A stretch of 64,000 bases of DNA from NCBI GenBank assembly GCA_021780535.1, contig JAJXYN010000012.1:69688-133687 (forward strand). Reading direction: 5' to 3'. This document shows, in pieces, positions 25,058 through 42,989 of this stretch. This DNA is from a bacterium. Its GTDB lineage: Bacteria > Patescibacteriota > Patescibacteriia > JAGPKW01. Below the pieces are notes generated by a model. It worked only from the letters and a program-made list of their open reading frames with translations. It ran no database searches and was not told the origin of the DNA. The position numbers and the translations under genes were made by a program. Each line of letters opens with the position of its first letter. Within the stretch, counting starts at the first letter, position 1.

Positions 25058-25495
25058 ATGCAAAAACAAGAAATTAAAAAACAAGATAAGAAAGAGATAA
25101 AATTTCCGGAAGGAAAATATCTTTATGCTGTTGGTAGAAGAAAATCTGCTATAGCTCAAGTTAGACTTTATAGTGGAAGAGGAAAATCTATTGTTAATGG
25201 AGTTGAGGCTGAAAAATATTTTGCAACTCCACTTATTAATAAAATGATTGAACCTTTGAAGCAAGTTTCAAAAGAAGGTGAATATGATGTTTATGTTAAA
25301 GTTGTTGGTGGTGGAACAAATGGGCAATCAGAGGCTATTAGACACGGAGTTTCAAGAGCAATATCAGAAGGTGATAAAGCTATTAGAACTACATTGAAGA
25401 AGTTAGGATTTTTAACTAGGGATCCTAGAGTAGTTGAAAGAAAGAAACCAGGTTTGAAGAAAGCTAGAAGAGCTCCTCAATGGGCAAAGCGTTAA
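25058..25495 (+). CDS. rpsI: 30S ribosomal protein S9
   Basis: GRRKSAIA, LTRDPRVVERKKPGLKKARRAPQWAKR. Confidence 0.97.
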   Translation: MQKQEIKKQDKKEIKFPEGKYLYAVGRRKSAIAQVRLYSGRGKSIVNGVEAEKYFATPLINKMIEPLKQVSKEGEYDVYVKVVGGGTNGQSEAIRHGVSRAISEGDKAIRTTLKKLGFLTRDPRVVERKKPGLKKARRAPQWAKR

Positions 25496-25558
25496 GCTTT
25501 GGCACCACAATTGGGAATATATCCCAAATTTATGCATTTTTCTAAAATCATATTTAAA

Positions 25559-25592
25559 AGGGACGTTCATTATTGTTATGAACGTCTTTTTT
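25559..25592 (+). terminator. Element-supplied terminator for the ribosomal operon
   Basis: AGGGACGTTCAT...ATGAACGTCTTTTTT. Confidence 0.6.
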
Positions 25593-25826
25593 GTTCCTCA
25601 TGTGATTTTATCGGTGATAGATTAGTTACGTCATTACTTTTCTATCCCCGATAAAATCACACGAGGCGATAATAGATTGCCTCCGATAAAGACTTTTTAA
25701 ACTTATAAAGGTCTTTATTTTTTTAATAATCAAAATAGGATTTAAAAAATCTTATAGAAAGGAATAAATTTAAATAAAAAATTAAATAAAAAGTCAGTAA
25801 TCTCTTATAAATTAACTAATTAAATA

Positions 25827-25976
25827 ATGAATAATGAAAATAATCTAAAAAGTTATATATTTTATTCTAATTGGAAAAAGAATAAAACTATTTTTAGAAA
25901 AATAAAAATAAAATTAATAGTTCTTTTTTATAGAATAAAAAGAAATTTTTTTAATAAATTAATCAAAACAACATGA
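25827..25976 (+). CDS. Small basic hypothetical protein (49 aa)
   Basis: Read manually: MNNENNLKSYIFYSNWKKNK...; its TGA overlaps the next ATG (ATGA). Confidence 0.4.
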   Translation: MNNENNLKSYIFYSNWKKNKTIFRKIKIKLIVLFYRIKRNFFNKLIKTT

Positions 25977-26167
25977 ATATAAAATTTATAAGCTCTATAT
26001 TAGAGTCTTTTTCTGATATCTTAGACGGTGATTTTTTGGTAGATGATAACTTTATTTTTATAGAAAAGCAGTTATCAAATGAAGAAAATAAAAGTGTTTT
26101 ATTTAAATTTGATCATGAGGGTAAACTCATAGAGACAAGAGTAAAAGATTTTAAGGAAATTTACTAA
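25973..26167 (+). CDS. Small hypothetical protein
   Basis: 64-aa ORF in an operon with the initiator. Confidence 0.55.
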   Translation: MNIKFISSILESFSDILDGDFLVDDNFIFIEKQLSNEENKSVLFKFDHEGKLIETRVKDFKEIY

Positions 26168-26184
26168 ATAATTAGATATTTATA

Positions 26185-26916
26185 ATGGAAAATAGTGGTT
26201 GGATAAAACTTCATAGAAAAATAGAAGAAAACTGGATATTTCAAGAAAAAAGAGTTTTCAGTAAATTTGAAGCTTGGCTACATTTTTTATTAAGAGCAAA
26301 CCATAAAGATAATAGAATATCACTCGGAAATGAAATAATAGAAATCAAACAAGGAAGTTTTATCACATCAGAAATTAAATTAATGAATCTTTTTAATTGG
26401 TCAAAGACTAAAATCAGATCTTTTTTAGAAGTCTTAGAAAAAGAAAAAATGATTATTAAAAAATCTGATACAAAAAAGACCACTATTTCCATTGTAAATT
26501 ATAATATTTACCAGAATTTAGAAACCACAAAAAAACCAAACAAAAACCAAAACAAAACTATAACAGAACCACAAAAAGACACAGACGAAGAATTTAAAAA
26601 TGAAAAGAATTATATAAATAACGATAATAGAAATTTTAAAAAATTTTCAGAAGATGAATTATTTAAAATAGATTATCTTTTAGAAAAAATAGGAAGTGAA
26701 AAAGAAAAACAAACTCTACTCGCAATAGCTTATCAATTAGGAATAAATTGGTTAGAAACTAGAATACCTTTTATTTTAGAAGATAGAGCAAATATAAATA
26801 ATATAGGTGCATATATTATGACTTTGGCTAAAAAAGATGGTTATGTACCAAAAAAGATAACAAAAAATAATTTTAGAGAAATGAAAAATATGATAATGGA
26901 AAAATTATCAATCTAA
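26185..26916 (+). CDS. Phage-type replication initiator (replisome organiser, wHTH N-terminus)
   Basis: GWIKLHRKI..W...ANH....GSFITSE..L...W.W...R.FL..LE...T.ISIVNY..YQ signature, then a low-complexity linker with A-rich iteron-like repeats. Confidence 0.8.
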   Translation: MENSGWIKLHRKIEENWIFQEKRVFSKFEAWLHFLLRANHKDNRISLGNEIIEIKQGSFITSEIKLMNLFNWSKTKIRSFLEVLEKEKMIIKKSDTKKTTISIVNYNIYQNLETTKKPNKNQNKTITEPQKDTDEEFKNEKNYINNDNRNFKKFSEDELFKIDYLLEKIGSEKEKQTLLAIAYQLGINWLETRIPFILEDRANINNIGAYIMTLAKKDGYVPKKITKNNFREMKNMIMEKLSI

Positions 26917-26933
26917 AAAATCCAATAAAGACA

Positions 26934-27815
26934 ATGTCTAAAACAAGTTTTATACAAGTACCAGAAGAAATAACAGAAAAATATTATAACAATTTGCAAT
27001 CAGCAGATAGATTTATAATACCAAGAATGAGATTTAAAAAGACAATATTATCGAGACAATTTATAAAAGGATTAAAACAAAAAACTTATTTAAAACAAAT
27101 ATCAGAAATATGGAAAGAATTCACAAAAGAGCAAAAACAAGCATGGAAAAATGTGGATTCTAGGAAATACCCTCATGGTTGGAGAATGTTTGTAACTGAT
27201 CAAAGTTTAAGAATAAAGCTAGGACTTACCGGAATAGTAACGCCTAATATTTATCATCAAGACTTGGTTGGTAAAATTCAAATACAATCGCCAGCACAAG
27301 AAATAAAATTAATTCAATTACATCCAAATAGTTATTGGATAAGTAAAAAAGTAAAAGGTTCAAAAAACATGTACGAGCCTGTGAAGATTGAAGAATATTT
27401 ATCTTTACCTTTAAAAATAGGGATAAGTTATAAATCAAATTTAGAAGTAACCGGCGAAGGAGCTTTTGCAAAATATTTCGTACGAATAAGGCATTTATAT
27501 CAAGGCAGAAATTTATTTACAGATGTAAGTATAGATATGCTTGCAAATACAGATTGGACATATAAAGAAGCTCAAAATACTTTCATGTTAGGTCAAGCAA
27601 TTTCTTATGATTTATATATTCATTTATACAAAGTAAAAGGAGAATTATTATTTGATAATTTAAAAGCTATTCATTCAGGAAGTAATTGGGCAAGAGATCA
27701 ATATTGTAAAAAGATAGAAAGAACATACACGAGAGGATTTTATCAAATACCAGAACATTGGTCGCCAGTGATAATCTCTCAAGGTGCTGATTATAAATCA
27801 ATTTATCCTATTTAA
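26934..27815 (+). CDS. Putative structural protein: basic helical N-domain plus beta-rich C-domain
   Basis: WKEFTKEQKQAWK...GWRMF motif shared with ORF 29892. Confidence 0.55.
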   Translation: MSKTSFIQVPEEITEKYYNNLQSADRFIIPRMRFKKTILSRQFIKGLKQKTYLKQISEIWKEFTKEQKQAWKNVDSRKYPHGWRMFVTDQSLRIKLGLTGIVTPNIYHQDLVGKIQIQSPAQEIKLIQLHPNSYWISKKVKGSKNMYEPVKIEEYLSLPLKIGISYKSNLEVTGEGAFAKYFVRIRHLYQGRNLFTDVSIDMLANTDWTYKEAQNTFMLGQAISYDLYIHLYKVKGELLFDNLKAIHSGSNWARDQYCKKIERTYTRGFYQIPEHWSPVIISQGADYKSIYPI

Positions 27816-27823
27816 TTAAAAAT

Positions 27824-28645
27824 ATGTCAGATTTTCCAAATACAATTTATAACCCAAGAGCAAAAGAAAATATTTATGGTGTTGTTTTTGATACAGCAAA
27901 TAAAAAGATGGCTTATGCGGAAGATTTTCAATTTTTAGATAATGAGGTTGTCGCTATTGAAAATGAGTTAGGAATAAATATAAAAGGCGTTTATCTAACT
28001 TTGAGAGAAAGAATAGAAAAAATGGAAATTGATATTTTTTTAGCAAATGATACTTTAGAGCCAAAAGCAAATAAATTTGAAATAGTAGATTTCTCAAATT
28101 TTACAGCAAGTAAAGTAGGTTCAGGTTCTAATATTAAAACGTGTTTTAGATTAAAACTTGCAACAGGAACTACAATAAACAGCAATGCAATAGCATATTT
28201 AAAATATTATAATTACGGGAATGCAGAATTTAGTTTTGATGAGAGTTTTCGTTTAATATTTTTTATAACTCAAATTTCAGGCGTTTTAAACGCTAATACT
28301 TTCTTAAAGGTAGATAATGACATAAATCCAGTAAATCCATCTAGCAAGGCCATAGGATTCAAATTAAATGGGTATAAATTGTTTGGCATTATTCACAATG
28401 GTACAAGTCTTCAAGAAATTGATTTGACTAAAAACCTTAATGCAAATGGAAAATTTAAACTAGAAATAAAATTTTTTATGTATAGTAAAATTGAATTTTA
28501 TGTAAATGATGTTAAGAGAGGCGAAAGTCAAAATATTCCTAATAGCTCAATGACTAATTCTAATATTTCAGTAAGTGTTGCAAATAATGCAGTTGCTAGT
28601 AATCAAGAAATTGCAGTGGGAAAAATATATTTAAGTGCTATATAA
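27824..28645 (+). CDS. Putative virion/receptor-binding protein, ConA/LamG-like C-terminus
   Basis: EVVAIENELG linker and KIEFYVND beta motif, paralogous to the next ORF. Confidence 0.5.
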   Translation: MSDFPNTIYNPRAKENIYGVVFDTANKKMAYAEDFQFLDNEVVAIENELGINIKGVYLTLRERIEKMEIDIFLANDTLEPKANKFEIVDFSNFTASKVGSGSNIKTCFRLKLATGTTINSNAIAYLKYYNYGNAEFSFDESFRLIFFITQISGVLNANTFLKVDNDINPVNPSSKAIGFKLNGYKLFGIIHNGTSLQEIDLTKNLNANGKFKLEIKFFMYSKIEFYVNDVKRGESQNIPNSSMTNSNISVSVANNAVASNQEIAVGKIYLSAI

Positions 28646-28650
28646 AAAAT

Positions 28651-29454
28651 ATGAGTATAGAAAATTGGTGTAATTTACCAAAATCACAAATTGATAATGA
28701 AACAATAGAAAATGCTATAAAAAGATTAATACAAGCACATTGCAATGATGTTAATGCACATTTGGAAGATGGTCAGAGCTTACACTCTCATAAAGCAAGT
28801 GAGGTTATAGATCATTTAGCATTTTCAATAGTGTCAGACAAAATTCAACAAGGAGCTATAAAATTCTATCAAGTTGAAGATAATTTGAGGGTTAAATATA
28901 CTCCACCGCTTGAAAGTATGGATGGTTGGAATTCGTATGGTGTTAATTTAACTTTGGGTGGTTTTTCCATGTATCAAGCTAATTTGCAGAATGTTTTATA
29001 TTATGCGATGACTTCCGGAATAGTTCCATTGAATTGGGAAAAGAATTTTACTTTTTCATTTCTTTGTAAAATTGGAGATACTACAAACTGTGTTGCTTAT
29101 GCTCTTGCTGGTGATGTTATGTATGATTCAGAAGATCAAGGAATTGGTTTTAAATTCATGAATAATAAAGTTTATACAACGCATGTAAGTATGATTAATG
29201 ATGTTCTTACTGAATTTTTAACTGAAATAAATGTTCAAAATAAAAATAGTTTTAATTTATATAGAGTTGAATTTGTTGCAGGTCAAAAAATTGAATTTTA
29301 TGTAAATGATCTTTTACTTGCTACACATACAATAAATTTTCCAAGTCAGTATTATTGTCACGGAATTATATTTTGTTTCAATATAAAGAATGTAAAAGTT
29401 GGATATGGTGCAATGTATGAAGTTGGGCAATTATATTTTGCTCAAGATAAATAA
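28651..29454 (+). CDS. Putative virion/receptor-binding protein, ConA/LamG-like C-terminus
   Basis: H..D.NAH coiled motif, IGFKF and KIEFYVND. Confidence 0.5.
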   Translation: MSIENWCNLPKSQIDNETIENAIKRLIQAHCNDVNAHLEDGQSLHSHKASEVIDHLAFSIVSDKIQQGAIKFYQVEDNLRVKYTPPLESMDGWNSYGVNLTLGGFSMYQANLQNVLYYAMTSGIVPLNWEKNFTFSFLCKIGDTTNCVAYALAGDVMYDSEDQGIGFKFMNNKVYTTHVSMINDVLTEFLTEINVQNKNSFNLYRVEFVAGQKIEFYVNDLLLATHTINFPSQYYCHGIIFCFNIKNVKVGYGAMYEVGQLYFAQDK

Positions 29455-29469
29455 TTAATAAAAATAATA

Positions 29470-29904
29470 ATGGAAATAGCTGAAATAATAACAGGGAAGG
29501 AATATCCTGAAAAAGTTATACCGATGATAGAAAATTGTAAAAAATCTATAGATATAGTTGTATTTGATTGGCGATGGTATCCGGATCAAATAGGGTCTAG
29601 TATTCAAAGATTTAATAATGCAATTGTTAAAAAAGGAAATACTGGAAAGCAAATAAGGGCAATAACAAATACAAAAGAAATTTCAAATGTTTTAATTCAA
29701 GGAAATATAAAAGCAAAAATATGGAAATCAAAAAGATTATTACATACAAAATTAATGATGATAGATGATGAAATTGCAATAATAGGAAGTCATAATTATA
29801 CATTAAATGCTTTTACAATAAATCAAGAAGTTTCTTTAATTATCAAGCAGAAACAAGTTTTAGAAAAATTAAAATTATATTTTGAAAATTTATGGCAGTT
29901 ATAA
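29470..29904 (+). CDS. Single-HKD phospholipase D-family (Nuc-like) nuclease
   Basis: LHTKLMMIDDEIAIIGSHNYT..A...NQE. Confidence 0.9.
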   Translation: MEIAEIITGKEYPEKVIPMIENCKKSIDIVVFDWRWYPDQIGSSIQRFNNAIVKKGNTGKQIRAITNTKEISNVLIQGNIKAKIWKSKRLLHTKLMMIDDEIAIIGSHNYTLNAFTINQEVSLIIKQKQVLEKLKLYFENLWQL

Positions 29905-30254
29905 AGCCAATACAGGAAGTTAAATCTTTAAATATTAAAAATAAATTAGGTACTTCATCTAATTTTGGTCAATTAACATTTGGTGAGACTAGATTTGGTC
30001 AATTTAAAAGTGAATATGGAATATATCAACAAAGAAGAAAAAGAAAAATTAAAATAACGATAAAAACTAAATTCTACTTACCAAAAAATCCAAAAACAGA
30101 AAGACAAATGATAAACCGATTAAAATTTAAAGAAGCAGTAAAAAAATGGCAAAATTTGACAAATAATGAGAAAGAAAAATATAATATAAGTACAAAATAT
30201 AAAAACTTATCAGGATATAATTTATTTATTAAACTAACTTTACTATCTAATTAA
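29892..30254 (+). CDS. Small basic putative DNA-binding/structural protein
   Basis: PKNPKTERQMINRLKFKEAVKKWQNLTNNEKEKYN...SGYNLF. Confidence 0.6.
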   Translation: MAVIKPIQEVKSLNIKNKLGTSSNFGQLTFGETRFGQFKSEYGIYQQRRKRKIKITIKTKFYLPKNPKTERQMINRLKFKEAVKKWQNLTNNEKEKYNISTKYKNLSGYNLFIKLTLLSN

Positions 30255-30306
30255 AGAGTCGAGTAAAAGCAAAACATTTTATTAAATAGTTTAAAAATAA
30301 AAATAT

Positions 30307-30882
30307 ATGCCAAAAGTTTCAGGGCCATTAATGTCTATGGACGCTAGTGGTAAACTCGGAAATTCAATTGTGTTTGGTAAATGGAAAGGTCAACATACAG
30401 TTAGAAGTTATGTAAAACCAGCAAATCCAAAAAAACCAGAGCAAGGTGATGTTAGACTTATATTAGGTGGACTTGGTAGGGCTTGTGGTTTTGTAGCAAA
30501 AGATAAAGGTTATCATACAAAATTGTTAGCTTTAAATATTATTCCATCATCTCAAAGTAAACAATCTTTTTTAGTTAAATACTTCAAAGATTTATTTATA
30601 AATGGAAGTGGAACAGTAATGAATACTAATTACGATGATCTTTTACTAGAGTTACAAGCACATACTGCTTATGCTGATTTTAATACAAAAGCTGTATCAA
30701 TAGGAATATCAGATTTTAGTTTGAGTTATGCTAGTTTAGCACCATTTGAAAAAGCTCTTTGTCTTTATATATTAGCAAAAGGCGCAATTTCTTTGGGATT
30801 TACAGGAACACCTTACACAAAATCACTTGCAACTTGGACATCAACAGATATTCAATCTTTGATAGTAGATTTACAAGGTTAA
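30307..30882 (+). CDS. Putative major structural protein (DUF6266-like N-terminus)
   Basis: MPKVSGPLMSMDASGKLGNSIVFGKWKGQHTVRSYVKPANPK..Q..VR. Last gene of the operon, followed by the hairpin GGAGGTCTCAT...ATGAGGCCTCT. Confidence 0.55.
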   Translation: MPKVSGPLMSMDASGKLGNSIVFGKWKGQHTVRSYVKPANPKKPEQGDVRLILGGLGRACGFVAKDKGYHTKLLALNIIPSSQSKQSFLVKYFKDLFINGSGTVMNTNYDDLLLELQAHTAYADFNTKAVSIGISDFSLSYASLAPFEKALCLYILAKGAISLGFTGTPYTKSLATWTSTDIQSLIVDLQG

Positions 30883-31042
30883 AAATAGGAGGTCTCATTT
30901 TATATGAGGCCTCTTACGATTAAAAAAATTCAAAATACAATTTAAACCACCCACGATAAACTCAATAACAAACCTTTATCGGTTCAGAAATGCTATTTAA
31001 CTTTAACTTGATAAAGTCTTATACAAAGTATGAAGTACGCTC

Positions 31043-31630
31043 GCTAAATTTTTTATTCCGGAGTACCTCCATAAAAAAATAAGCTCGCTGATGAACGTTT
31101 ATCTATAATCAACGTTTTTTATCTAGTCCATCCCGCTCCTTTCTTATTAATGTTCGCAGTAGCTCACATAAATAAGAAATCCGCTAGCTAAAATTGCCCA
31201 TAATTTTTTGAGTACAAAAAAATAGGCAATTTCTCTGCTAATAAACTTCAGTTTGCAAAATAGACAAGTGCTAACCCGTAAAATTTTTATAAATCTTCGT
31301 AGTAACTACGATTAATAAAAAATTTTACTCACTGCATCACATTATTTTTATGTTCCGCTATCGCTACACATAAAAATAAGTGATTTATGAAAATTAAAAA
31401 GTAAGAAGTGCTAACCCGGAAAAAAATAATAAACTAAGGTTAAAAAATCCGGTGAACGTAACGGTGCTCGCATAACAAGACATTTTGCGACACCTCGCTA
31501 CGTGATTGCTAGTTTAAAAGCACATCTAAAGAACCGCTCGCCGCTCGCAAAATGCTATGTTATGCGACACCTATACAGACCATCACGTTTATTGCCCCGG
31601 ACTTTTTAGAAAATTAATCTATTTTTTTCC
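31043..31630. other. Non-coding hairpin array ending in a ~210-nt imperfect rod
   Basis: Five 40-50 nt hairpins (31043-31384) and a long inverted-repeat rod (31418-31630); see findings. Confidence 0.8.
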
Positions 31631-32015
31631 TAACTTCCGTAATCCTGCTATAACGTGCATCTCGTTTCGCCCTCTGCAAACTATAAACAGTCCATCACGT
31701 AAGTGCTTCGGGCGACCAAAAAACAACGATAAAAAGCGTAAATACAACGCAAAACAAGTCTTAAAAAACAAAACAAAATTTAAAATAAAAATAAAGCCTT
31801 CCGATTATGATAAGAAACGGAATGCCTCTAAGGATTTACTCATAGACTATTTTAGATAAAAAAAGCCTATAAACAATATTTTAAAAAAATAAAAACTTTA
31901 AAAATTAGCCATTTTTAATAAAACAAAAAAGCATAAAAGCTTTATATTTTTTTGCTATTTATAAAATACTTTTAGTGTTTTGGTTTTATAAAATAACAGC
32001 GTAATTACAATATAA

Positions 32016-32639
32016 ATGGAAATAAATAAAAGATATAAACAAAATATATTAATACCAGATCAATTTTTGACCCAGAACGAAGTTGGGTGCTTGTTGAAAT
32101 CCATAGATACAAGAACATTTTTAGGAAAAAGAGATAAAGTAATTCTGTTGTTATTTTTAAATACAGGACTTAGAAAAAATGAATTATTAAGTTTGAATAT
32201 AGAAAACTATAAAAAAGAAAATAATGATTATTGGTTAGAATTCAAAGCAAAAGGCGGACAAATACATATACAAAATATATCTCAAATAGAAGTTATAAAA
32301 GCCGTAGATTCATATTTAAAATTATGGAAAATAGGAAACAATGAATTAGAGCCTATATTTCAAAGTACTTATGATTGCAAAAATAAGAGTGGCAAAAGAT
32401 TAAGTAAACAGTCATTAGAATTTATGCTTAAAAAATATGGCAAACAAGCAGGAATTCAAAAAAAATTACATATTCATATGTTAAGACATACAGCAGGAAG
32501 TGAATTTTATAGATTAACTCAAAATTTACCTTTAACTCAAATGTTTTTAAGACATAAAAGTATAAATTCAACTCTTATCTATATGCACGCAGACAAAACA
32601 AAAGTAAAAGAAGTTCAAAAATTGATGTTCAAAAATTAG
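32016..32639 (+). CDS. Short tyrosine recombinase (catalytic domain only)
   Basis: TGLRKNE, KAKGG, HMLRH, LRHKS and IYMH give a complete R-K-H-R-H-Y set. 207 aa. Confidence 0.9.
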   Translation: MEINKRYKQNILIPDQFLTQNEVGCLLKSIDTRTFLGKRDKVILLLFLNTGLRKNELLSLNIENYKKENNDYWLEFKAKGGQIHIQNISQIEVIKAVDSYLKLWKIGNNELEPIFQSTYDCKNKSGKRLSKQSLEFMLKKYGKQAGIQKKLHIHMLRHTAGSEFYRLTQNLPLTQMFLRHKSINSTLIYMHADKTKVKEVQKLMFKN

Positions 32640-32792
32640 AAAAAAATCTCAAAGAAATCATCAAAAAAATACAGGACAAATCTTGAAAAATAACTCAGAT
32701 CAAACTCGAAAAAAATATCAGAAAAAACTTTGAAAAAATATCAAACTAAATATCAATAAAAACCTAAATAAAATATCTAACAAACAAAAGAT

Positions 32793-33212
32793 ATGATTAT
32801 AAAAGATCTAAATAGATTAAATAAAAAAGTAAAAGAATTATGCGAAAAATTTATCAATGAGTGTAAAAACAAAGATATAACTGTAATTATCACAGAAACA
32901 TTTAGAGATAAATCAAGACAAGAACAAGCAGTAATCGAAAATAAAAGCAATGCTCATTTTGGTTACTCATTTCATAATTATGGATTAGCTTTCGATTTTG
33001 CTGTGTTAAATAAAAATAAAGGAATCACTTGGAATGTAAATAAAGATAAAAATTGGTTTATTTGCGGTGAAATCGGTAAGAAACTAGGTCTTTCTTGGGG
33101 TGGTGATTGGAAAATGAAAGATTATTGTCATTTTGAGTTCTATTTTAATATAAATAGAGATGTTTTGCTTAATAAATTATTAAAAGGATTTGATGCTAAT
33201 AAATTAAGTTAA
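32793..33212 (+). CDS. M15-family peptidoglycan peptidase (endolysin)
   Basis: ETFR...Q, SFHNYGLAFD, WGGDW..DYCHFE. Confidence 0.9.
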   Translation: MIIKDLNRLNKKVKELCEKFINECKNKDITVIITETFRDKSRQEQAVIENKSNAHFGYSFHNYGLAFDFAVLNKNKGITWNVNKDKNWFICGEIGKKLGLSWGGDWKMKDYCHFEFYFNINRDVLLNKLLKGFDANKLS

Positions 33213-33216
33213 AAAT

Positions 33217-33420
33217 ATGCCAGAAACAAAACAAATTTATCAATCAATGACGATTATGGGCGCTGTTATCGTAATAATTTCTTTTGTTGTTAATAGATTA
33301 AATATTGATATTTCAAATAAAGAAGTTGTTGATGTAGTGAGTGCGGTTTTTGTAATAGGAGGCGCTTTGATTTCTATTATTGGACGAATTAGGGCTAATA
33401 AGAGGATAGGGAAAAAATAA
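33217..33420 (+). CDS. Putative holin (2 TM)
   Basis: Two hydrophobic helices and a basic GRIRANKRI tail, 4 nt after the lysin. Confidence 0.7.
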   Translation: MPETKQIYQSMTIMGAVIVIISFVVNRLNIDISNKEVVDVVSAVFVIGGALISIIGRIRANKRIGKK

Positions 33421-33858
33421 CAATTATGTTTTATATTAGATAATTATTTATAATTAGGATTTCTTCATCATTTCTTCATTTTGTTTTGCTATAATATTTC
33501 TATTTATTTTTTAAAATATAATTTATGTTTTACTTTATGACTGATAAAAATGAAGTATTAGTTTTTATCAGTGCCGTTATTATATTTATTTTGTCTGTTA
33601 TTGTATATTATAAATTTTTTTATAATAGAAATAAGTAGTTTATAAATTTGTACACTGGTTGATTTTGTTATATTTAAAAGGTATATTATTTAAAATATTT
33701 CAATTAAATAAAAGAATTAATTTAAAATAGCTTGTAAAAAGCTTATTTTGAAAATATTTTTTGTGCACAACCACAAATGCGGTAAAGATGTTATAATTAA
33801 AATATATATTAAGATATAAATTATAACTATTTAATTTTTAAAGAAGTATGTTAAAAGT

Positions 33859-35982
33859 ATGTTAAAAGTTCAAATAGAAAAAAATAAAATATTTTCTCCT
33901 CTTAGAAAAAAATGGTTAATAAATACTCCAGAAGAAGAAGTCAGACAAGGTTATATTTGTAAGCTTGTTAATGATTATGGGTATGATTTAGAACAAATAG
34001 ATGAAGAGTTGCAGGTAAATAATAGTTTAAGAGGACAAGGTAAATCAAGAGCAGATATTGTCATTTGGAAATCAAAAGAAGAAAGGTTGAGCAAAAAAAA
34101 TGCTTTTATTGTTGTTGAATGTAAATCTGATAATGTTGTTATACATCCAGAAGATTATTATCAAGGTAATAACTATGCTTCTTGGGCAAGGGCTAAATTT
34201 TTTATTACTCACAATAATGCTGAAACAAAGTATTTTCAGATGCTTGAAGATAAATTACCTATTGATTTAAATGAAATAGCTAATATACCCAAAGCGGAAG
34301 AAGTAAATAATGAGATTAGATTGAAAGAGTTAGTTGATGAAACTAAAGTATTTACTAGAGATGAATTTTCAAAGTTACTTTATAAATGTCATACAATAAT
34401 TAGAAATAATGACAAACTTTCTCCTGAAGGTGCTTTTGATGAAATTAGTAAAATATTATTTATTAAGATAAGATATGAAAGACAAAAAGGGAAAAATATA
34501 TTTTCTCTTGCTCGTTTTAATGAATTAAAAAATAATTATGAAGAAACTGCTTCTAGAAACTCTAAGCCGTTTTATCAAAATTTATTTGAAAAAACAAAAG
34601 ATGATTTAGAGAAAGATGAACTTTTTGAAACGAATGAAGAGATAAAAATTCGTGAAAATAGCTTTGAACAAATAGTAAAAGAACTGGAGAAATATAATCT
34701 TTCAGATACAGGAGATGATGTTAAAGGAATAGCTTTTGAGCAATTTTTAGGCAAAACATTTAGAGGTGAGCTTGGGCAATTTTTTACTCCTAGAACAATA
34801 GTTGATTTCATGGTTGATATTTTAGACCCAAAAGAAAATGATTTAATTTGTGATCCTTGTTGTGGATCTGGTGGTTTTCTTATTAAAGCTTTTGACTATA
34901 TTAGAGCTAAAATTGAAGCTGATATTTTGAGACAAAAAGAAGAAATCAAAAATAAATATTTTGATGAAAAGTATCAAAAATTAGATGATAAAGAAAAGCA
35001 AAAGATTGATGATACTGTAGAACGTGAATTTAAGAAATTGAATCAAGAACTAGATAATAAAATAGAAAAATCTAGATTACATAATTTATCTCATAATTGT
35101 ATATATGGTTCTGACGCTAATCCAAGAATGGCAAGAACTAGTAAAATGAATATGATTATGCATGGTGATGGTCATGGTGGAGTTCATCATAATGATGGAT
35201 TATTGGATGTTAATGGTATCTTTGAAAACCGTTTTGATATAATTCTTACAAACCCTCCTTTTGGTTCAAGAGTTGGCAAAGATCACAAAATAACAGATAA
35301 TGATAATAAATATAAAGGCAAAGAATCTTATATTAAAGAAAAATTTGGTGATGCAGGTTTAAATGCAATATCTAATTTAGAGAATAACATTGGTAAAAAT
35401 CTTATAGAAACTTATGAAACTGGAAGTTTTTCAACTCTTACAGAAGTTTTGTTTATGGAACGTTATCTAAGATTGCTTAAGCAAGGTGGGAAAATGGCCG
35501 TTGTTTTGCCAGAGGGTTTTTTAAATAATCCAAATTTACAAAAAGTAAGAGAATATTTTGAAGGTAGAGCTAAGATTGAGCTTATCGTTTCTATCCCTCA
35601 GGATGTATTTATAGCTAGCGGGGCTACGGTAAAGCCCAGTTTGGTGTTTTTACAAAAATTTACTCAAGTAGATAGTAAAAAATATGAAAAAATAAAAGAG
35701 GAAGTAAATAAAAATATTATAGAAAAATATCAAATTCAAATAGATGAATTAGAAAATGAATTAGAAAAACTAAAAGGAGATAAAAGAAAACTAAAGAAAA
35801 AAGAATTGGATAATTTAGAAATTCTTATTGAAACTGAGATAAAACAGGAGATTAAAAATAAATTTGATTATCAAATACCAATAGTAGAAGTTGAAAAAGC
35901 TGGCATTACAACAACAGGAGAAAAATGTGAAAATGAACTTTTAGATGTAGTAAAAGAGTATAGAAAATATAAATCTAAATAA
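33859..35982 (+). CDS. Fused restriction nuclease (HSDR_N-like) plus HsdM-type N6-adenine methyltransferase
   Basis: PEEEVRQ..ADIVIW..VECKS, then GQFFTPR, DPCCGSGGFL and TNPPFG. Confidence 0.9.
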   Translation: MLKVQIEKNKIFSPLRKKWLINTPEEEVRQGYICKLVNDYGYDLEQIDEELQVNNSLRGQGKSRADIVIWKSKEERLSKKNAFIVVECKSDNVVIHPEDYYQGNNYASWARAKFFITHNNAETKYFQMLEDKLPIDLNEIANIPKAEEVNNEIRLKELVDETKVFTRDEFSKLLYKCHTIIRNNDKLSPEGAFDEISKILFIKIRYERQKGKNIFSLARFNELKNNYEETASRNSKPFYQNLFEKTKDDLEKDELFETNEEIKIRENSFEQIVKELEKYNLSDTGDDVKGIAFEQFLGKTFRGELGQFFTPRTIVDFMVDILDPKENDLICDPCCGSGGFLIKAFDYIRAKIEADILRQKEEIKNKYFDEKYQKLDDKEKQKIDDTVEREFKKLNQELDNKIEKSRLHNLSHNCIYGSDANPRMARTSKMNMIMHGDGHGGVHHNDGLLDVNGIFENRFDIILTNPPFGSRVGKDHKITDNDNKYKGKESYIKEKFGDAGLNAISNLENNIGKNLIETYETGSFSTLTEVLFMERYLRLLKQGGKMAVVLPEGFLNNPNLQKVREYFEGRAKIELIVSIPQDVFIASGATVKPSLVFLQKFTQVDSKKYEKIKEEVNKNIIEKYQIQIDELENELEKLKGDKRKLKKKELDNLEILIETEIKQEIKNKFDYQIPIVEVEKAGITTTGEKCENELLDVVKEYRKYKSK

Positions 35983-35983
35983 C

Positions 35984-37339
35984 ATGGTTTCTGTGATAAA
36001 TAAAATTGAATATAAATATTTACAATTCACATCTTTTAAAAATTGGTTAAATTGGGATGTAAAAAGTTATGCAAAAAACAATCTTAAATCAGATTATGAG
36101 TTTATAAAATTAGGCTCTGTGTTAAAAGAACATGTTGAAAAAGTAAAATTAAAAGATTTTCCAGACAAAGAGTTTGGTATTTTAGGTGTAAATAATAAAA
36201 TTGGTATTTTCGATGCTTATTTGGAAAAAGGTTCAAAAATAAATCAGCCATATAAAATATTAAAAAACAATTGGATTGCTTATAATCCTTATCGTGTAAA
36301 TGTTGGTTCAATAGGAATTAAAACACAAAATGAAAAATATGAGTATATAAGTAATGCTTATGTTGTTTTTAGTTGTGATGAACAAAGATTAGATACGGAT
36401 TTCTTTTTTAGACTTTTTAAAACAGATACATTTAATAATCTTGTTAAGAAATCAACGAAAGGTTCTGTTCGTCAAAATCTTTCTTTTGATTTACTTAGTA
36501 ATATTCAAATTCCTTTGCCTTCTATTAGTGCTCAAAAAGAATTTATAAAAATTTATAATAATAAAATATCAGACATTAAAAAACTAGAAATTCAAGTTAA
36601 CGAAATAAGTAGTAAAATTGAAAGTTATTTAATGAAAGAGCTTAATATAAGCGTAGAGAAAACTCAAAAAATAAAAGGTCTTCATTTTGTAAATTTTAAA
36701 AATTTAAATAAGTGGACATTAAATGAAACAACTTTAGAGAAAATACAAGAAAAATCAAAATATAAGGCTGTCCCAATAGAAAAAATATCAGAAAGTATTT
36801 TAAGAGGAAAATCTCCAAAATATGACGATAATTCTAATTGTGTTATTTTAAATCAAAAATGTAATCGTTGGGATGAAATTGATTTGGAATTTGCAAAAAC
36901 AGTAAATAAAGAATGGCTAAATAAGCAAACTCTTTTTACTAAAGAAAGTGATGTTTTGATAAATTCAACCGGCGAAGGAACAATTGGAAGATCTACGTAT
37001 ATATTAAAAAGTTATGAGGGGTTACTTTTTGATAGTCATCTACTTTTATTTAGGGGAGATAAAAAAATTATAAATGGAAAATATTTTGTGTATTGGTTTA
37101 ATTCAACAATAAATCAACAATATCTGAATGAAATAAAATCAGCGCAAACAACAAAACAAACAGAATTAGGATCTAATAATTTAAGTAATATGTTGATTCC
37201 TTTACCACCTCTTGAAACGCAAGAAGAAATAGTAAATCAAATAGATTCTTGGAAAAATAAAATTAAGGATATTAATGAAAAAATTGAGTCATTAAGAGAA
37301 GGTGCTCAAAAAGAATTTGAAGTTAATCTTTTTAAATAG
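35984..37339 (+). CDS. HsdS-type specificity subunit
   Basis: Two TRDs, ending IPLPSISAQ and IPLPPLETQEEIV. Confidence 0.9.
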   Translation: MVSVINKIEYKYLQFTSFKNWLNWDVKSYAKNNLKSDYEFIKLGSVLKEHVEKVKLKDFPDKEFGILGVNNKIGIFDAYLEKGSKINQPYKILKNNWIAYNPYRVNVGSIGIKTQNEKYEYISNAYVVFSCDEQRLDTDFFFRLFKTDTFNNLVKKSTKGSVRQNLSFDLLSNIQIPLPSISAQKEFIKIYNNKISDIKKLEIQVNEISSKIESYLMKELNISVEKTQKIKGLHFVNFKNLNKWTLNETTLEKIQEKSKYKAVPIEKISESILRGKSPKYDDNSNCVILNQKCNRWDEIDLEFAKTVNKEWLNKQTLFTKESDVLINSTGEGTIGRSTYILKSYEGLLFDSHLLLFRGDKKIINGKYFVYWFNSTINQQYLNEIKSAQTTKQTELGSNNLSNMLIPLPPLETQEEIVNQIDSWKNKIKDINEKIESLREGAQKEFEVNLFK

Positions 37340-37355
37340 ATGCAATAAAGTAAAA

Positions 37356-37410
37356 TTTATAAAAAATAAAAAACTAAGATTTATTTCTTAGTTTTTTTAT
37401 TTTTTATAAA
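37356..37410. terminator. Long AT-rich inverted repeat / terminator
   Basis: TTTATAAAAAATAAAAAACTAAGA...TCTTAGTTTTTTTATTTTTTATAAA. Confidence 0.55.
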
Positions 37411-37506
37411 GTTCATGATTTGTTCATTTTTTGCATACCTTATTGAAAAAACATTTAAAAGGTGTATCATTAAATAGTAAATATACTAAATGATTTTTAT
37501 AAAAAT

Positions 37507-38781
37507 ATGAATGAAATTATATGTCCAAATTGTAAAAAAGCTTTTAAAGTTGATGAGGCTGGTTTTGCTGATATTCTTAAACAAGTCCGCGATGAAGCGT
37601 TTAGTAAAGAATTAAAAGAACGTGAGAGAATGTTTGCTGAAGATAAAGAGAATTCTATTAAATTAGCTGAAGCAAATATTAAAAATTTGTTACAAAAAGA
37701 TATTTCAAAAAAAGAAACGGAAATAGCTGAAATAAAAGCTAAAAAAGATTTAGAGATTGCTGAACTTGATGCAAAAAAAGAAGCTGAATTGGCTGAAATG
37801 AAATCAAAAATAGATAATGCAGAAATTGAGAAAAAACTTGCCGTAACTGAAGCAGTAAATAAAATTGAGAAAGATCGTGATAATCTTGCAGGTGAATTAA
37901 AAATTAAAGATACAGAAAAACAATTACTTGAAACATCATTAAAAGAAAAATATATCACAGAACTTAAAACAAAGGATGATATTATTAAAATGAAAGATGA
38001 TGAAATTGCTCTTCGTAAAGATATGAAAGTTAAACTTTCTACAAAAATGATAGGTGAAACATTAGAACAACATTGCGAAACAGAGTTTAATAAACTTCGT
38101 GCTACTGGTTTTCAAAATGCATATTTTGAAAAAGATAATGATGTAAAAACTGGTAGTAAGGGTGATTATATTTATCGTGAAAATACTGAAGAAGGTAATG
38201 AAATTATTTCTATTATGTTTGAAATGAAAAATGAAGGAGATGAAACTGCTACAAAGAAAAAAAATGAAGATTTTTTACGTGAGCTTGATAAAGATCGTAT
38301 AGAGAAAAAATGTGAATACGCGGTGCTTGTTACTCTTCTTGAATCTGAAAATGAATTATATAACACTGGTATCGTTGATGTTTTTCATAAATATCCAAAA
38401 ATGTATGTAATTCGTCCACAATTTTTTATTCAAATAATAACTTTATTACGTAATGCAGCTACGAATTCTCTAAAATATAAAGCAGAACTTGCATTAGTAA
38501 GAAATCAAAATGTTGATATTACAAATTTTGAGGACAATGTAAATAAATTTAAAGAAGAATTTGGAAGAAATTATGAATTGGCCAGTCGTAAGTTTAAAAC
38601 AGCTATTGAAGAAATAGATAAAACAATAGATCATCTTCAAAAAACTAAAGAAGAACTTTTATCATCTGAAAACAACCTTCGTTTAGCCAATAATAAAACA
38701 GAGGATTTAACCATTAAAAAACTAACACGTGGTAATCCTACTATGACAGCTAAATTTGCAGAGATTACAAATATTAAATAA
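37507..38781 (+). CDS. DUF2130-family coiled-coil protein
   Basis: [37 protein letters not shown]. Confidence 0.85.
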
Positions 38782-38795
38782 TAACTAAAATATAT

Positions 38796-39008
38796 ATGCA
38801 AAGACAAAATGTTTCATCTTCTGATATTGCTTCAATTGGGTACGATCAAAATTTATTCATATTAGAAATTGAATTTTTAAGTGGAGGAATATATCAATAT
38901 ATTAATGTGCCAAGTAGTATTTTTCAAGGAATAATGTCCGCTTCTTCTCATGGTGTTTATTTTCATCAATATATTAAAGATAAATATAGCTGTAATAAAA
39001 TTAAATAA
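38796..39008 (+). CDS. KTSC-domain protein
   Basis: VSSSDIASIGYD....LEIEF.SGGIYQY..VP.......ASSHG.YF. Confidence 0.9.
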   Translation: MQRQNVSSSDIASIGYDQNLFILEIEFLSGGIYQYINVPSSIFQGIMSASSHGVYFHQYIKDKYSCNKIK

Positions 39009-39010
39009 AT

Positions 39011-40897
39011 ATGTTTTTAACAAAATTAATAATAATAAATAACAAAAGTTGCAAAAGAGTAATTTTAGAACCATCTAAGGATGAGCCAGAAATTTTGATT
39101 GGTATAAACGATTGCGGAAAGTCTACAATTTTAAAGTCTTTAGATTTATTTTTTGATGAGAAAAAAAATTTTAGTTTTATTAAAGAAGATCAACAAAAAA
39201 ATGATCTTTCAAACTCTCCTTTAAACAACTTAGAAATCAATGAATTATTAGAAGAAAATAAGTATCCAAGTTTTTTTGAGTATTCTGGTGATGTTATTAT
39301 CGTTATTTGTCAATTTGAGGTAGAAGAAAATGATTTAAAAAATAATGAATTTCAAGAAAGTTCAAAAAATGCTCATTTAAAATGGAGTATTATTGATAAT
39401 AAAATAAATTTAATGCGTGTATTTCATAATTCTGAACAAGGATCACAGAATTTGAGCGGGTATTATTTACTAACTAATGATTATAAAGATAATGAAAGTT
39501 ATTTAGAGTTATGGAATAAGCCAGCTAAAGAATTAACAGAAATTAAGAAAAAATTTAATATTGATAATAAAGATGTAGATAATGAAAATAATGTTGGTCG
39601 TTTAAAGAATATTGAAAATATAGAGGCAATTTATAAAAAAATGCCTACCTTATGTATGAAATGGTCTAAATATAGTGATTTTTCAAAAGATAAAACATTC
39701 TACCCAAATTTTAAATATTTGGATTGGAATTTTTCTTTAAAGGAATTAGAAGATATAGCTACTGAGGCAATGAATAAGGTGACAGAACCACTACTTCAAG
39801 AGATAAGACAGTTGGTTTCTGAAAAACAATCCGAAGCTATAATCGGTGTTAATAATGAATTTGCTAGTATGATGGGAGATTTGAAAGATGATCTACCTAA
39901 GTGTGTAAAAAAAATTAGCTCATCAGTATTTTTTGATGTAAGTCAAAAGGTTACTGATATAAAACTAGAAAAAGAAAATGTTGATGGAGAAATACATATA
40001 GATAATCAAGGAGAGGGCATAAAGAGGCAGATTTGGTTTGCGTTGTTAAAGTGGCGTAGTAAATTAATATCTAATGAAAATAAATCAAATAAATATGTTT
40101 GGTGTTTTGATGAACCAGAAACACATTTATATCCTGCCGCACAAAGGCAACTCTTTGAGACATTAAAAGAAATGTGTAGTAATGAATTTCAAATATTATT
40201 GAGCACACACTCAACAATTTTTATAGATAGAACAAAAATTAGTGATGTTAAGCAAGTAACTTTAGAAGGTGGTTACTCAACTATTTATAAAAGCGATAAC
40301 TCAACAGATCTTTTTAATTGTTTGGGTATAAAAAATAGTGATTTTTTGTTTTTTGATAAGTTTTTAGCCGTAGAAGGCTTTACTGAGTATGGTTTAATTC
40401 CATATTTGTATCAGTTGAAATATTCTAGGTCATTATTAAATGATGGAATACAAATCATCAACTTAAAAGGGGAAGACCAATATTTAAATAATAAAGGTAT
40501 CTTAGAAAATATTTTATCTGATTTTCAGAAGACTAGTGATAAAATTTTTTATTTATTTGATAATGATACAGGAATGTCTGGCGACAATATTTTTACTTCT
40601 GGCACTTATGATATAGAAGATTCTATTGAAAATAATATTTGGATTGAATTTGTAAAAGATAATTGTGATATAGATATAACGGAAGATATTTTGAATAATG
40701 ATATAAGAAAAAAATTAGAAAACAAGAATGGTAAAAAATTTTATAAGTTACTTGGAGATTATGTAGTAAAAAATTTAAAAGATGAAAAATATTTGCCATC
40801 TAAAGCTAGATCGGGTTATTTGTTAACTAAGTATTTTAAAGACATTAAAGATATTCCTAAAAAAATTGATAACCTTTTTAACGCATTAAGTTCTTAA
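39011..40897 (+). CDS. OLD-family ATP-dependent nuclease (ABC ATPase + TOPRIM)
   Basis: GINDCGKST, QGEG, FDEPETHLYP, STHS, VEGFTE and FDND. Confidence 0.85.
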   Translation: MFLTKLIIINNKSCKRVILEPSKDEPEILIGINDCGKSTILKSLDLFFDEKKNFSFIKEDQQKNDLSNSPLNNLEINELLEENKYPSFFEYSGDVIIVICQFEVEENDLKNNEFQESSKNAHLKWSIIDNKINLMRVFHNSEQGSQNLSGYYLLTNDYKDNESYLELWNKPAKELTEIKKKFNIDNKDVDNENNVGRLKNIENIEAIYKKMPTLCMKWSKYSDFSKDKTFYPNFKYLDWNFSLKELEDIATEAMNKVTEPLLQEIRQLVSEKQSEAIIGVNNEFASMMGDLKDDLPKCVKKISSSVFFDVSQKVTDIKLEKENVDGEIHIDNQGEGIKRQIWFALLKWRSKLISNENKSNKYVWCFDEPETHLYPAAQRQLFETLKEMCSNEFQILLSTHSTIFIDRTKISDVKQVTLEGGYSTIYKSDNSTDLFNCLGIKNSDFLFFDKFLAVEGFTEYGLIPYLYQLKYSRSLLNDGIQIINLKGEDQYLNNKGILENILSDFQKTSDKIFYLFDNDTGMSGDNIFTSGTYDIEDSIENNIWIEFVKDNCDIDITEDILNNDIRKKLENKNGKKFYKLLGDYVVKNLKDEKYLPSKARSGYLLTKYFKDIKDIPKKIDNLFNALSS

Positions 40898-41160
40898 TAT
40901 AATTTGTACACAATAATTGTTCAAATATTTCTCTAAAACTAAACAAAAAAGCACTTATACACAGTGCTTTTTTTGTTGGTTCTAAGATGAATTTTCAGAA
41001 ATTTAATAAGATTTTAATTAGAAAATTAATAATTTGTTCATCACCACTATGTTATAGTTTCTTTTGTTAAAAACTTAATAGAAGGGGATTTAAAAATATT
41101 ATTTTAAGACATAAGGAAATCTTAAAATAGTGATTTTAATTAAAAATGGTTTGTAATTTC

Positions 41161-41352
41161 TTATTTTTTCTTTTCTTTGGCTTCTGGAAATACTTTTAAG
41201 AAATCATCTTCATTTACTACTACGATTTCTTTTTTTATTTCTCTTTTTGAGGCTTTTAGTTCTTTTGATAAGACTTTTCTTCTTATTGTTTCATAATGTA
41301 CGCCGTATTTTTTTGATAATTCTAGTAGAGTATATTCTTTATTATCGGACAT
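41161..41352 (-). CDS. HTH excisionase-like protein
   Basis: YTLLELSKKYGVHYETIRRKV..KELKASK; divergent from the integrase. Confidence 0.75.
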   Translation of the reverse strand: MSDNKEYTLLELSKKYGVHYETIRRKVLSKELKASKREIKKEIVVVNEDDFLKVFPEAKEKKK

Positions 41353-41575
41353 TTGATTTTTTGTTTATCTGATTTTATTAGATGTAATATATATTTTATC
41401 AGTAATTTTGGCTAATATAAATACTTTTTGAAATATGTTGATAGGTCTATTGTGTATCAATACACATTATGATATAATTTTTACATAAGAGATTGCTGAC
41501 CATTTTAAAAGTGGTTGGTATTTTTATTTTTTTAAATATTAAATACTGACAATATCTAATAATTAACTTAAAAAA

Positions 41576-42505
41576 ATGGCAGAAATTATTAATATTGATA
41601 AGAGTAATATTAAAATAGTAAATGATTTTTTAGATTGGTTGGCTATCGGACATTCTTTGGAAACAGTTGATTCATATAAGTGGCCTTTGAGATTATTTTG
41701 TAAATGGTTATCTGGCAAAGAAAAAAATGTTATTGATATGAAAGAAAAAGATTTTGTAGCCTTTCATTTATTTTTAAAAGAAGACAGGCAGGTAAAAAAT
41801 TCAACGATGGCTCATTATTTTACATCTATTAGAACACTTTGGAGATATATGTATAGAAATGAAATGGTAAATTATGGTGATGATAAAATTCCAATGCCAA
41901 AAGCTGATGATAAACAATCTTATCCTTATGCGGAAGAGGCTGATATAAATAAAATACTTGATTCATTTAGGGGCTGGGATATAAAAGATATTAGAGATAA
42001 AGCTATTGTTTCTTTATTGTATAAGACAGGTTTAAGAATAGGAGAGTTGAGAAGTCTTGATATTTCTGATGTTGATTTAGAATTTAAAAAAGCTACTGTT
42101 CAAACTGAAAAAAGGATAGGACACAAAAGAGAAATTTATTGGGATGATAAAACAAATGAATTTTTAAAAAACTGGATAGATACAAGAGAAGAATTTTTAC
42201 TACAAGAAAGACGATCAGAAAATGCTTTATTTATAGGTATGACAATGGGTAGTAAAGATAAAAGAATAGATAGATCAACAGTACAAAAGATGTTTAGAAA
42301 AAAAAGAGATGAGTTAGGAATAAATAAAAAACTAACACCACATTCTTGCAGACATGGATTCGGACATAGAGCAGTAGAAAAGAATGTAAATATTAGATAT
42401 CTTCAAGTAATGCTTGGGCATTCAAAAATAGACACAACAATGATTTATATGGGTTGTAAAAATAAAGACGTAGAAACTGCTTATAGACAATTAATGTTCG
42501 CTTAG
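41576..42505 (+). CDS. Tyrosine integrase (XerC/D-like)
   Basis: SAM-like N-domain, TGLRIGE, TPHSCRH, LGHS and TTMIY; adjacent to the right att core. Confidence 0.92.
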   Translation: MAEIINIDKSNIKIVNDFLDWLAIGHSLETVDSYKWPLRLFCKWLSGKEKNVIDMKEKDFVAFHLFLKEDRQVKNSTMAHYFTSIRTLWRYMYRNEMVNYGDDKIPMPKADDKQSYPYAEEADINKILDSFRGWDIKDIRDKAIVSLLYKTGLRIGELRSLDISDVDLEFKKATVQTEKRIGHKREIYWDDKTNEFLKNWIDTREEFLLQERRSENALFIGMTMGSKDKRIDRSTVQKMFRKKRDELGINKKLTPHSCRHGFGHRAVEKNVNIRYLQVMLGHSKIDTTMIYMGCKNKDVETAYRQLMFA

Positions 42506-42682
42506 ACTAATCAAAAGAAGTTCCTAAAAAACTTCTTTTTGGTTTAAAAATATAAATACTGTTGTGGTAAAAGTTAATCTCCACAATTAAATTTTACAAA
42601 ATATTTAGTAGTTGATATAATGAAAAGAATTAAATATCTCTTAGGTTTAAAAATACTTATTGGAATAACAGCAATGACGAAA

Positions 42683-42765
42683 CCCCAATGGGCAAAAAGA
42701 TAATTTTCTGTTTATTTTTTCTATCATAGTAAAAACAATTCTGAGAAATCGGAATTGTTTTTTTG
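42683..42765 (+). other. Displaced original rpsI 3' end (attR) and its terminator
   Basis: Encodes PQWAKR*, followed by AAAAACAATTCTGA-GAAA-TCGGAATTGTTTTTT. Confidence 0.85.
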
Positions 42766-42989
42766 TTTTATCTTATCAATTTATGATTTGCTGAAATTTT
42801 AAGATTGCAGTGATTTTTTCATCTTCATTTTTTTAAGTTTTCACACATACATGTGTTCGAATTAAAAATAATGAAGCATGAAAAAACACTATTAATGTTT
42901 TTGGAATAGATTGTTATTTATTTGAATTAATCCTCTATATCGTGTTATATTTATTATAATAATACTAACTAATATTTAAATATAAAAAC

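Follow-up and report, generated by a model that had tools for sequence, protein, structure and literature searches.

Within the stretch of bacterial DNA analysed here (the window; 64,000 nucleotides), an element inserted at the 3' end of rpsI carries an integrase and lysis genes, and a first, sequence-only reading recognised in it no virion hallmark gene. The locus raises the question of what kind of element this is and, if it is a virus, what kind of particle it makes. The best explanation, to which we give slightly better than an even chance, is a temperate provirus from a lineage of small DNA viruses that has yet to be described; its particle would be length-flexible and probably helical, and it would leave the cell by lysis. 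The lineage is established by the evidence given below; the particle is not.

Integration site, integrity and host

The element spans 17,219 bp of the window sequence between two copies of an 11-bp att core (Table 1), and these are the only two copies in the 860-kb genome, the chance expectation for such an 11-mer in 17 kb being 0.002 copies. Both ends of the element encode PQWAKR followed by a stop codon, so that rpsI is restored. The site is empty in relatives: two genomes of the same family have the order rpsI-Smr-serS without an insert, and in a genome of the same genus rpsI is followed by sequence that resembles the flank of the window after attR. The precise att cores described in the sequence-only reading are confirmed by these comparisons, although the exact crossover point is uncertain because the last rpsI codons of the same-genus genome agree with attL and not with attR.

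A sequencing run from a second study contains pieces that resemble the element to about 93-98% across Rep, genes A, C, D and E, the PLD nuclease, endolysin and integrase as well as the left hairpin and the non-coding region; the element is therefore not an artefact of one assembly. In the best run, the probable source, read depth is flat over the element and its flanks (about 16-21), and no attB or attP joint is present among the joints listed for its contigs. The ORFs are intact, and the measured sizes of the core (7.9 kb) and of the defence cargo (7.0 kb) agree with the earlier estimates of about 8 and 7 kb. The element is thus real, intact and anchored in the chromosome.

A CPR host, as had been proposed, is likely. 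The genome measures 860 kb at 90.95% completeness, its RpoA is most similar to those of Falkowbacteria and Nealsonbacteria among the five genomes tested, and 12 of 19 genome contigs of the close clade stand in CPR bins, the binning of small contigs being unreliable. The copy in the window is the sole close-clade member found anchored between host genes and so links the clade with a host that is probably a CPR bacterium.

Table 1. Features of the integrated element, in window coordinates.
Feature	Position	Strand	Evidence or remark
attL core, 11 bp, CAATGGGCAAA	25478..25488	+	in the last codons of rpsI
Whole element	25478..42696		between the att cores
Left-end hairpin cluster, including a 71-nt imperfect hairpin (25596-25666) and neighbours	25562..25718	.	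z about -12
Acidic ORF, 64 aa	25973..26167	+	no family match in Pfam, PHROGs
DnaD/lambda-O-like replication initiator (Rep)	26185..26916	+	phrog_2514, E 4e-35
Gene A, 293 aa: basic helical domain paralogous to D/E, CBM-like beta-sandwich	26934..27815	+	
Gene B, 273 aa, fibre/spike-like: N-terminal ~60 aa conserved, C-terminus variable	27824..28645	+	alignment coverage
Gene C, 267 aa, fibre/spike-like	28651..29454	+	
PLD/Nuc-type nuclease (HKD), single-domain, core gene	29470..29904	+	PF13091, E 2e-19
Gene D, 120 aa, net charge +20, paralogue of E	29892..30254	+	hhalign 98.7% with E family
Perfect sigma-70 consensus TTGACA-18-TATAAT, inside gene D	30156..30185	+	~120 nt before gene E
Gene E, 191 aa: basic N-terminal arm, beta-hairpin, helical body	30307..30882	+	
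Structured non-coding region, A/T-stem hairpins	30900..31640	.	z -9.9 / -11.2
Second tyrosine recombinase, 207 aa, catalytic domain only	32016..32639	+	PF00589, E 5e-28; catalytic motifs intact
M15 peptidase endolysin	32793..33212	+	PF13539, E 3e-14
Holin-like membrane protein, 67 aa	33217..33420	+	sole hydrophobic core protein; PHROG holin E 0.1
Cargo: methyltransferase with N-terminal HSDR_N domain, specificity subunit	33859..37339	+	
Cargo: DUF2130, KTSC, OLD-family ATPase-TOPRIM	37507..40897	+	
Excisionase-like HTH protein	41161..41352	-	HTH_17, E 0.002
Tyrosine integrase, 309 aa	41576..42505	+	PF00589, E 8e-36
attR core, CAATGGGCAAA	42686..42696	+	followed by second PQWAKR-stop end, to 42703

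The six-gene operon and its relatives

Family matches bear out the integrase, the phage-type initiator and the M15 endolysin of the sequence-only reading. Its excisionase and holin stand as putative assignments: an HTH_17 match is present for the former and the latter is hydrophobic, but the E-values in both cases are weak. The second tyrosine recombinase resembles Xer- and invertase-type models of NCBIfam, all below cut-off, and is probably a dimer resolvase. This gene, the PLD/HKD nuclease of the operon and the structured non-coding region are absent from the first reading.

Genes A, B, C, PLD, D and E form an operon as tight as had been described, with intergenic gaps of 8, 5, 15, -13 and 52 nt, and it contains neither a Walker A motif nor a membrane helix. 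Gene A, the beta-sandwich of which finds its best match in CBMs, is probably an end or adhesion protein. Relatives of gene B match tail-fibre and LamG-type families; longer relatives of gene C bear beta-helix domains, and C is conserved over a larger share of its length than B. The nearest NCBIfam model of the nuclease is NucT, below cut-off, and the motifs HxKxxxxD and GSxN are kept in 71 and 72 of the 72 family members, respectively. Gene D is a probable minor coat or cap protein, and gene E is the candidate for the major particle protein.

Profile comparison identifies E, D and the N-terminus of A as paralogues of one basic domain of ~95 residues (hhalign 98.7% and 92.2%, without a significant score when E is aligned with A itself). 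The E profile alone finds two to four copies per locus in each of 13 loci checked, and additional D-like paralogues, some of them fused to LamG domains, are common in relatives. In the predicted structure of E (pLDDT 88, pTM 0.79) a basic arm of low confidence precedes the beta-hairpin and the helical body, and the model displays no significant match to any solved fold and no structural tie to a known coat protein. E is distantly related to DUF6266 (PF19781), a mainly Bacteroidota family with a related N-terminal motif: E itself does not match the DUF6266 model, falling below the Pfam cut-off, but distant members do so weakly (18 of 131 E-family members at E up to 0.05, best 5e-6), and the likeness has an Atlas feature score of 0.89. 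DUF6266 had zero text matches in the literature searched.

The promoter inside gene D is a conserved property of the operon. Of 73 relatives, 53 have it in perfect form ahead of E and 66 keep at least 11 of its 12 positions, and the perfect form is rare before the other genes (PLD, 2/54; B, 3/44; C, 0/37; A, 3/17), which suggests that E is an abundant product. Leu-Thr is written TTGACA in 56 of 58 D genes adjacent to E, against a background of TTGAC in 134 of 450. This codon choice points to selection acting on the promoter DNA, a control weakened by the D paralogues that are not adjacent, since 6 of 8 of these also write Leu-Thr as TTGAC.

A search with E found 96 close relatives, all on contigs shorter than 15 kb, and its profile retrieves 3,410 representatives at 50% identity (E up to 0.001); metagenomes hold at least 501 E-family loci. 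E has no match in 72,556 plasmids. The loci fetched comprise 7 from IMG/VR, 36 from genomes and 80 of the at least 501 from metagenomes. Among 38 close-clade contigs of at least 6 kb, chosen for E after exclusion of five duplicates and one flank-cut locus, D is present in all 38, PLD in 36, A and B in 31 each and C in 28, with the order mostly kept; the six-gene operon recurs in dozens of independent contigs without head or tail genes, and the metagenomic contigs that carry it number in the hundreds. Neither the Rep nor the M15 of the window has a tblastn match in any of the 38 contigs, and a tyrosine recombinase occurs in one; PHROGs detect O-like initiators in two close-clade contigs and a helicase in one. 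The lysis slot is filled by unrelated lysins (amidase, SLT, M23-type peptidase, CHAP, M15, lysozyme), glycosyltransferases are found in 67 related loci, and the contigs range in length between 6.3 and about 20 kb at 41-55% identical E.

In a quick tree the E of the window nests in a clade of 42 rows with a support of 98. Records of Methylococcaceae, Acidithiobacillus and Acidobacteriota contain more distant members, and the lineage extends beyond CPR. The Methylococcaceae copies stand behind repressor-, Cro- and O-like genes, and a cultured Methylobacter, M. psychrophilus Z-0021, carries the module, which lies in several pieces of its assembly and is probably present twice. Lone D/E-like genes are also found in chromosomes without the module (L034-L036, L041, L043), so that possession of the domain does not by itself indicate a virus. 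IMG/VR contains next to nothing of the close clade (0 of 111 candidates), and its 7 distant loci compare with the metagenome total of at least 501. Atlas clusters near E are labelled mostly Uroviricota where the phylum is known.

Structured regions and genome ends

The left-end hairpin cluster has no other copy in the genome and contains a terminator-like site on the minus strand. The structured non-coding region that follows gene E holds CGCT ten times on the plus strand and not once on the minus strand, and is a candidate single-strand origin or packaging/processing site. The element of the window has a single region of this kind, in one orientation and without long (inverted) repeats, unlike the free forms; a variant that is circular and integrates would be expected to look like this.

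Contigs of the free relatives (6-20 kb) mostly lack Rep and integrase. The terminal 40-mer recurs inverted in 18 of 45 close contigs, a count that includes two duplicate pairs, and L051 and L100 have inverted repeats of 1,121 and 972 bp. The loops between the repeat arms (170-848 nt) are non-coding and fold as branched hairpins, with z-scores of -9.6 to -34 for the 13 loops folded and of -1.2 to 0.3 for coding controls. This strong folding argues that the loops act as single strands; the contigs fit hairpin-ended linear DNA and a circle with an inverted repeat alike. Several loop tips read GCGAAGC or GCGTAGC, and GCGAAGC is an unusually stable DNA mini-hairpin. CGCT and AGCG show a mirror bias at the ends (left 212/109, right 126/220, middle 767/707, n=39; p about 1e-8 and 5e-7; 24 versus 11 contigs at each end), related contigs not being independent; with this bias, TAGCG-like motifs lie close to the 3' end of either strand. 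The accessible part of PMC10378824 gives TAGCGA/T as the CS-6 site of single-strand origins.

Class of the element, proposed particle and known systems

In agreement with the first reading, no virion hallmark gene was found in the element with Pfam, PHROGs and NCBIfam. The search was extended to the relatives. Apart from the clusters of A, D, E and PLD, 40 close loci contain 238 ORFs of at least 100 aa; from these, 108 cluster representatives were picked, of which 94 were scanned after two near-duplicates and 12 short frames in non-coding ends had been dropped. Terminase, portal and HK97 capsid are absent from these 94 ORFs; the matches are to glycosyl- and methyltransferases, fibre/spike domains and lysins, and two peptidases match tape-measure models at lower rank via their peptidase domain. 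For 12 distant loci, 81 ORFs were scanned (78 of the 125 picked and 3 added, those left out being judged opposite-strand frames or flanking genes), and only L001 has head and tail genes.

The defining features of known groups were compared with the element. HK97 capsid, portal and terminase, the hallmarks of Caudoviricetes, were found neither in the element nor in the 94 ORFs of the close loci; the sole exception is L001, one of the 12 distant loci, which is probably chimeric. The pI/Zot ATPase of Tubulavirales has no Pfam or PHROG match, the sole Walker A motif being that of the OLD cargo protein; in place of small single-membrane-helix coat proteins and non-lytic release, the only hydrophobic ORF is holin-like and an endolysin is present. 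No sequence or fold match was found between E and the Adnaviria coat protein. With respect to the jelly-roll capsid and FtsK-HerA ATPase of Varidnaviria/Singelaviria, the core encodes no ATPase and the beta-sandwich of A best fits CBMs. The initiator is DnaD/O-like instead of an HUH Rep, and close relatives have no HUH match. The element lacks a long perfect palindrome of the type targeted by an N15-like protelomerase, and the PICI/P4 packaging genes TerS, Sid and Ppi have no match in PHROGs, Pfam or NCBIfam. On these tests, Caudoviricetes, Tubulavirales, HUH-Rep viruses and PICIs were rejected.

The lambdoid-type initiator, the integrase and the lysis and fibre-like genes are ordinary phage parts, as they would be in a decayed tailed prophage that had lost its head and tail genes, and the HK97 head and major tail gene that adjoin the module in L001 can be read in the same way. 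In L001, however, the head genes lie on the opposite strand, and the frame before them, which we take to be portal-like, breaks off at the module; the strand switch and the broken frame suggest a chimera. The recurrence of the compact operon without head or tail genes, the intact ORFs and the lack of any match to E, A, a D-like paralogue or a distant E in 50,697 phage genomes leave this explanation largely refuted and very improbable. A helper-dependent satellite or linear plasmid-like replicon, whose DNA would be bound by E-family proteins inside the cell and whose fibres and lysis genes would serve to modify a helper phage, carries more weight, though we consider it unlikely. It would account for the absence of replication and integration genes from most free relatives, and two IMG/VR contigs, L145 and L001, in which pieces of the module are joined to tailed-phage genes, show contact with tailed phages. 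Against it, the searches detected neither a small terminase nor a capsid-size determinant nor any other gene of PICI/P4 type, the host genome (91% complete) has no terminase detectable with PF03237, the one family tested, and the retention of a strong promoter for E, of three paralogues and of two fibre genes fits self-assembly better.

Improbable to a like degree is a self-packaging virus that is not helical, in which the beta-sandwich of A, best fitted by CBMs, would be a single-jelly-roll-like capsid, or in which a complex of DNA and E would be wrapped in a membrane, with PLD acting on lipids.

The class named in the sequence-only reading, an undescribed small temperate virus or satellite, is judged the best. 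Neither of the two observations that this reading had named as refuting was made: the products of the ORFs at 30307 and 26934 have no tail, baseplate or capsid family match and none in the 50,697 phage genomes, and the close loci carry no terminase, portal or HK97 capsid gene.

Under the preferred reading, a temperate provirus with a helical particle, the integrase puts the circle into the 3' end of rpsI with restoration of the gene, as observed at the insertion. Once the circle has been excised, its replication would depend on the DnaD/O-like initiator together with enzymes of the host, and dimers would be resolved by the 207-aa recombinase. E would be made in bulk from its own conserved promoter, and its basic arm may coat the DNA to form a helical nucleocapsid, the ends of which would be capped by the paralogues D and A via the same domain. 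The domains found in A, B and C would supply sugar-binding heads and fibres that bind the host. In the weakest step, the PLD nuclease would cut and rejoin DNA at the structured non-coding region to yield unit-length, hairpin-ended genomes, by analogy with vaccinia K4, which the accessible part of PMC11980589 describes as a PLD-family nicking-joining enzyme. Equally tentative, the free relatives without Rep may use the same PLD enzyme and host polymerases in a rolling-hairpin or strand-displacement cycle from terminal hairpins. The products of the holin and endolysin genes would release the particles. This model requires no motor, portal or membrane channel, which fits their absence. Observations that speak against it are the flat read depth, the Uroviricota labels of nearby Atlas clusters, the lone D/E-like genes of chromosomes, the module pieces joined to tailed-phage genes in L001 and L145, the near-absence of the close clade from IMG/VR and the lack of a long inverted repeat in the window's element.

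Closest in working to the proposed model are Ligamenvirales/Adnaviria (archaeal rudiviruses and lipothrixviruses), which have a helical nucleoprotein, paralogous coat proteins, terminal fibres, hairpin-ended inverted repeats, glycosyltransferases and a lytic exit. The group described here differs from them in its bacterial hosts, 6-20 kb size, holin-endolysin lysis, core PLD nuclease and temperate members; the archaeal filamentous viruses are lytic dsDNA viruses of 14-41 kb (bioRxiv 10.64898/2026.09.15.751708, accessible part). Inoviridae/Tubulavirales resemble the proposed model in being filamentous and length-flexible, in their ability to integrate and in a structured intergenic region, but the element has lysis genes and lacks the pI/Zot ATPase, HUH Rep and small membrane coat proteins. 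IME1 of Dehalococcoides is likewise integrated, integrase-bearing, devoid of tailed-phage hallmarks and proposed to be filamentous; as described in the accessible part of the same preprint, it has a pI-like ATPase, membrane structural proteins, a size of 21-28 kb and non-lytic release, none of which is shared by the element. Charybdis elements, marine circles of about 4.6 kb with an archaeal host and a double-Greek-key hallmark protein (bioRxiv 10.1101/2025.08.03.668216, accessible part), are similarly small, some of them integrated, without a hallmark or replication gene and with fibre-like structural genes. Main-text descriptions set both IME1 and Charybdis apart from the group by their hallmark genes. 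PICI/P4-like satellites share a size of about 15 kb, an integrase, a replication gene and defence cargo; the element differs in having its own lysis cassette and fibre genes and in lacking a terminase small subunit and capsid-redirection genes. The accessible part of PMC13059738 concerns other viruses, namely a tailed patesciphage and an inovirus. No description of the lineage was found in the literature searched, which covered few subscription papers, and the group is apparently undescribed.

According to the accessible part of bioRxiv 10.64898/2026.09.15.751708, those filamentous viruses of bacteria that have been characterised to date have ssDNA and are extruded by a pI ATPase without lysis. 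The relatives described here may represent a new major group of DNA viruses, a possibility that we regard as falling somewhat short of probable: lytic filamentous viruses of CPR, Pseudomonadota and probably other bacterial phyla, with a coat fold unlike solved structures (the DUF6266 superfamily), hairpin-ended genomes made by a PLD nicking-joining nuclease that replaces an HUH Rep or protelomerase, and minimal forms without a replication gene. If this is true, such viruses, lytic and helical with a new coat fold, would extend the range of virion types in bacteria, and a very large protein family of unknown function (3,410 clusters together with DUF6266) would gain a function. The group is almost invisible to present virus catalogues, and the cultured Methylobacter that carries the module makes the central question testable.

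Left-end hairpins and flanking repeat

Seven sites in the left-end hairpin block (window 25624-25702) differ between the window and the contig from sequencing run X1. Elsewhere in the putative provirus, the long pieces of the X1 contig revealed no further difference from the window. Six of the seven X1 differences are also present in run X5. The variation represents either two alleles or an assembly difference. Immediately beyond attR, at window 42744-42922, lies a dispersed host repeat of ~120-160 bp, which has ~10 diverged copies spread over six other contigs of the same genome. Cargo genes of the element and a fusion gene outside it are listed below.

Cargo genes and a window gene outside the element
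Feature	Window position	Strand	Remark
LexA-like repressor-DNA methyltransferase fusion	7821-9338	(-)	outside element; from translation
Methyltransferase with N-terminal HSDR_N domain, with S subunit, without HsdR	33859-37339		cargo
DUF2130-KTSC-OLD cassette	37507-40897		cargo; candidate defence system

Contacts with tailed-phage sequence

In two loci, pieces of the element operon lie next to tailed-phage sequence. The first, L145:9829-9945, is in the tail region of a contig from a tailed phage, where an out-of-frame fragment of 39 aa is 46% identical to the C-terminus of gene A; this fragment is either chimeric or a scar left by gene exchange. At L001:7465-8300, a module of gene A, the PLD nuclease gene and gene E borders an HK97 module with head and tail genes, which is encoded on the other strand; this junction is probably chimeric.

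Multiple copies and reduced relatives

The isolate Methylobacter psychrophilus Z-0021 (L030, L161, L162) carries a partial module twice, in similar copies that are 93% alike. A separate contig of this isolate bears a repressor-Cro-O-holin-D-PLD-A block. One MAG, G616, contains three different contigs of the E-gene element family (L141-L143).

Reduced relatives occur in two Acidobacteriota records, L032:10001-13250 and L037:6153-13293, the former from a closed chromosome. In both, an E-like gene lies close to an integrase, neither locus has a match to gene A or the PLD gene, and the arrangement represents a minimal or a relic form. Solitary D/E-like genes are found amid housekeeping genes in L034-L036, L041 and L043, which derive from Spirochaetota, Syntrophaceae, UBP4 and Halanaerobiaceae records, and have possibly been domesticated.
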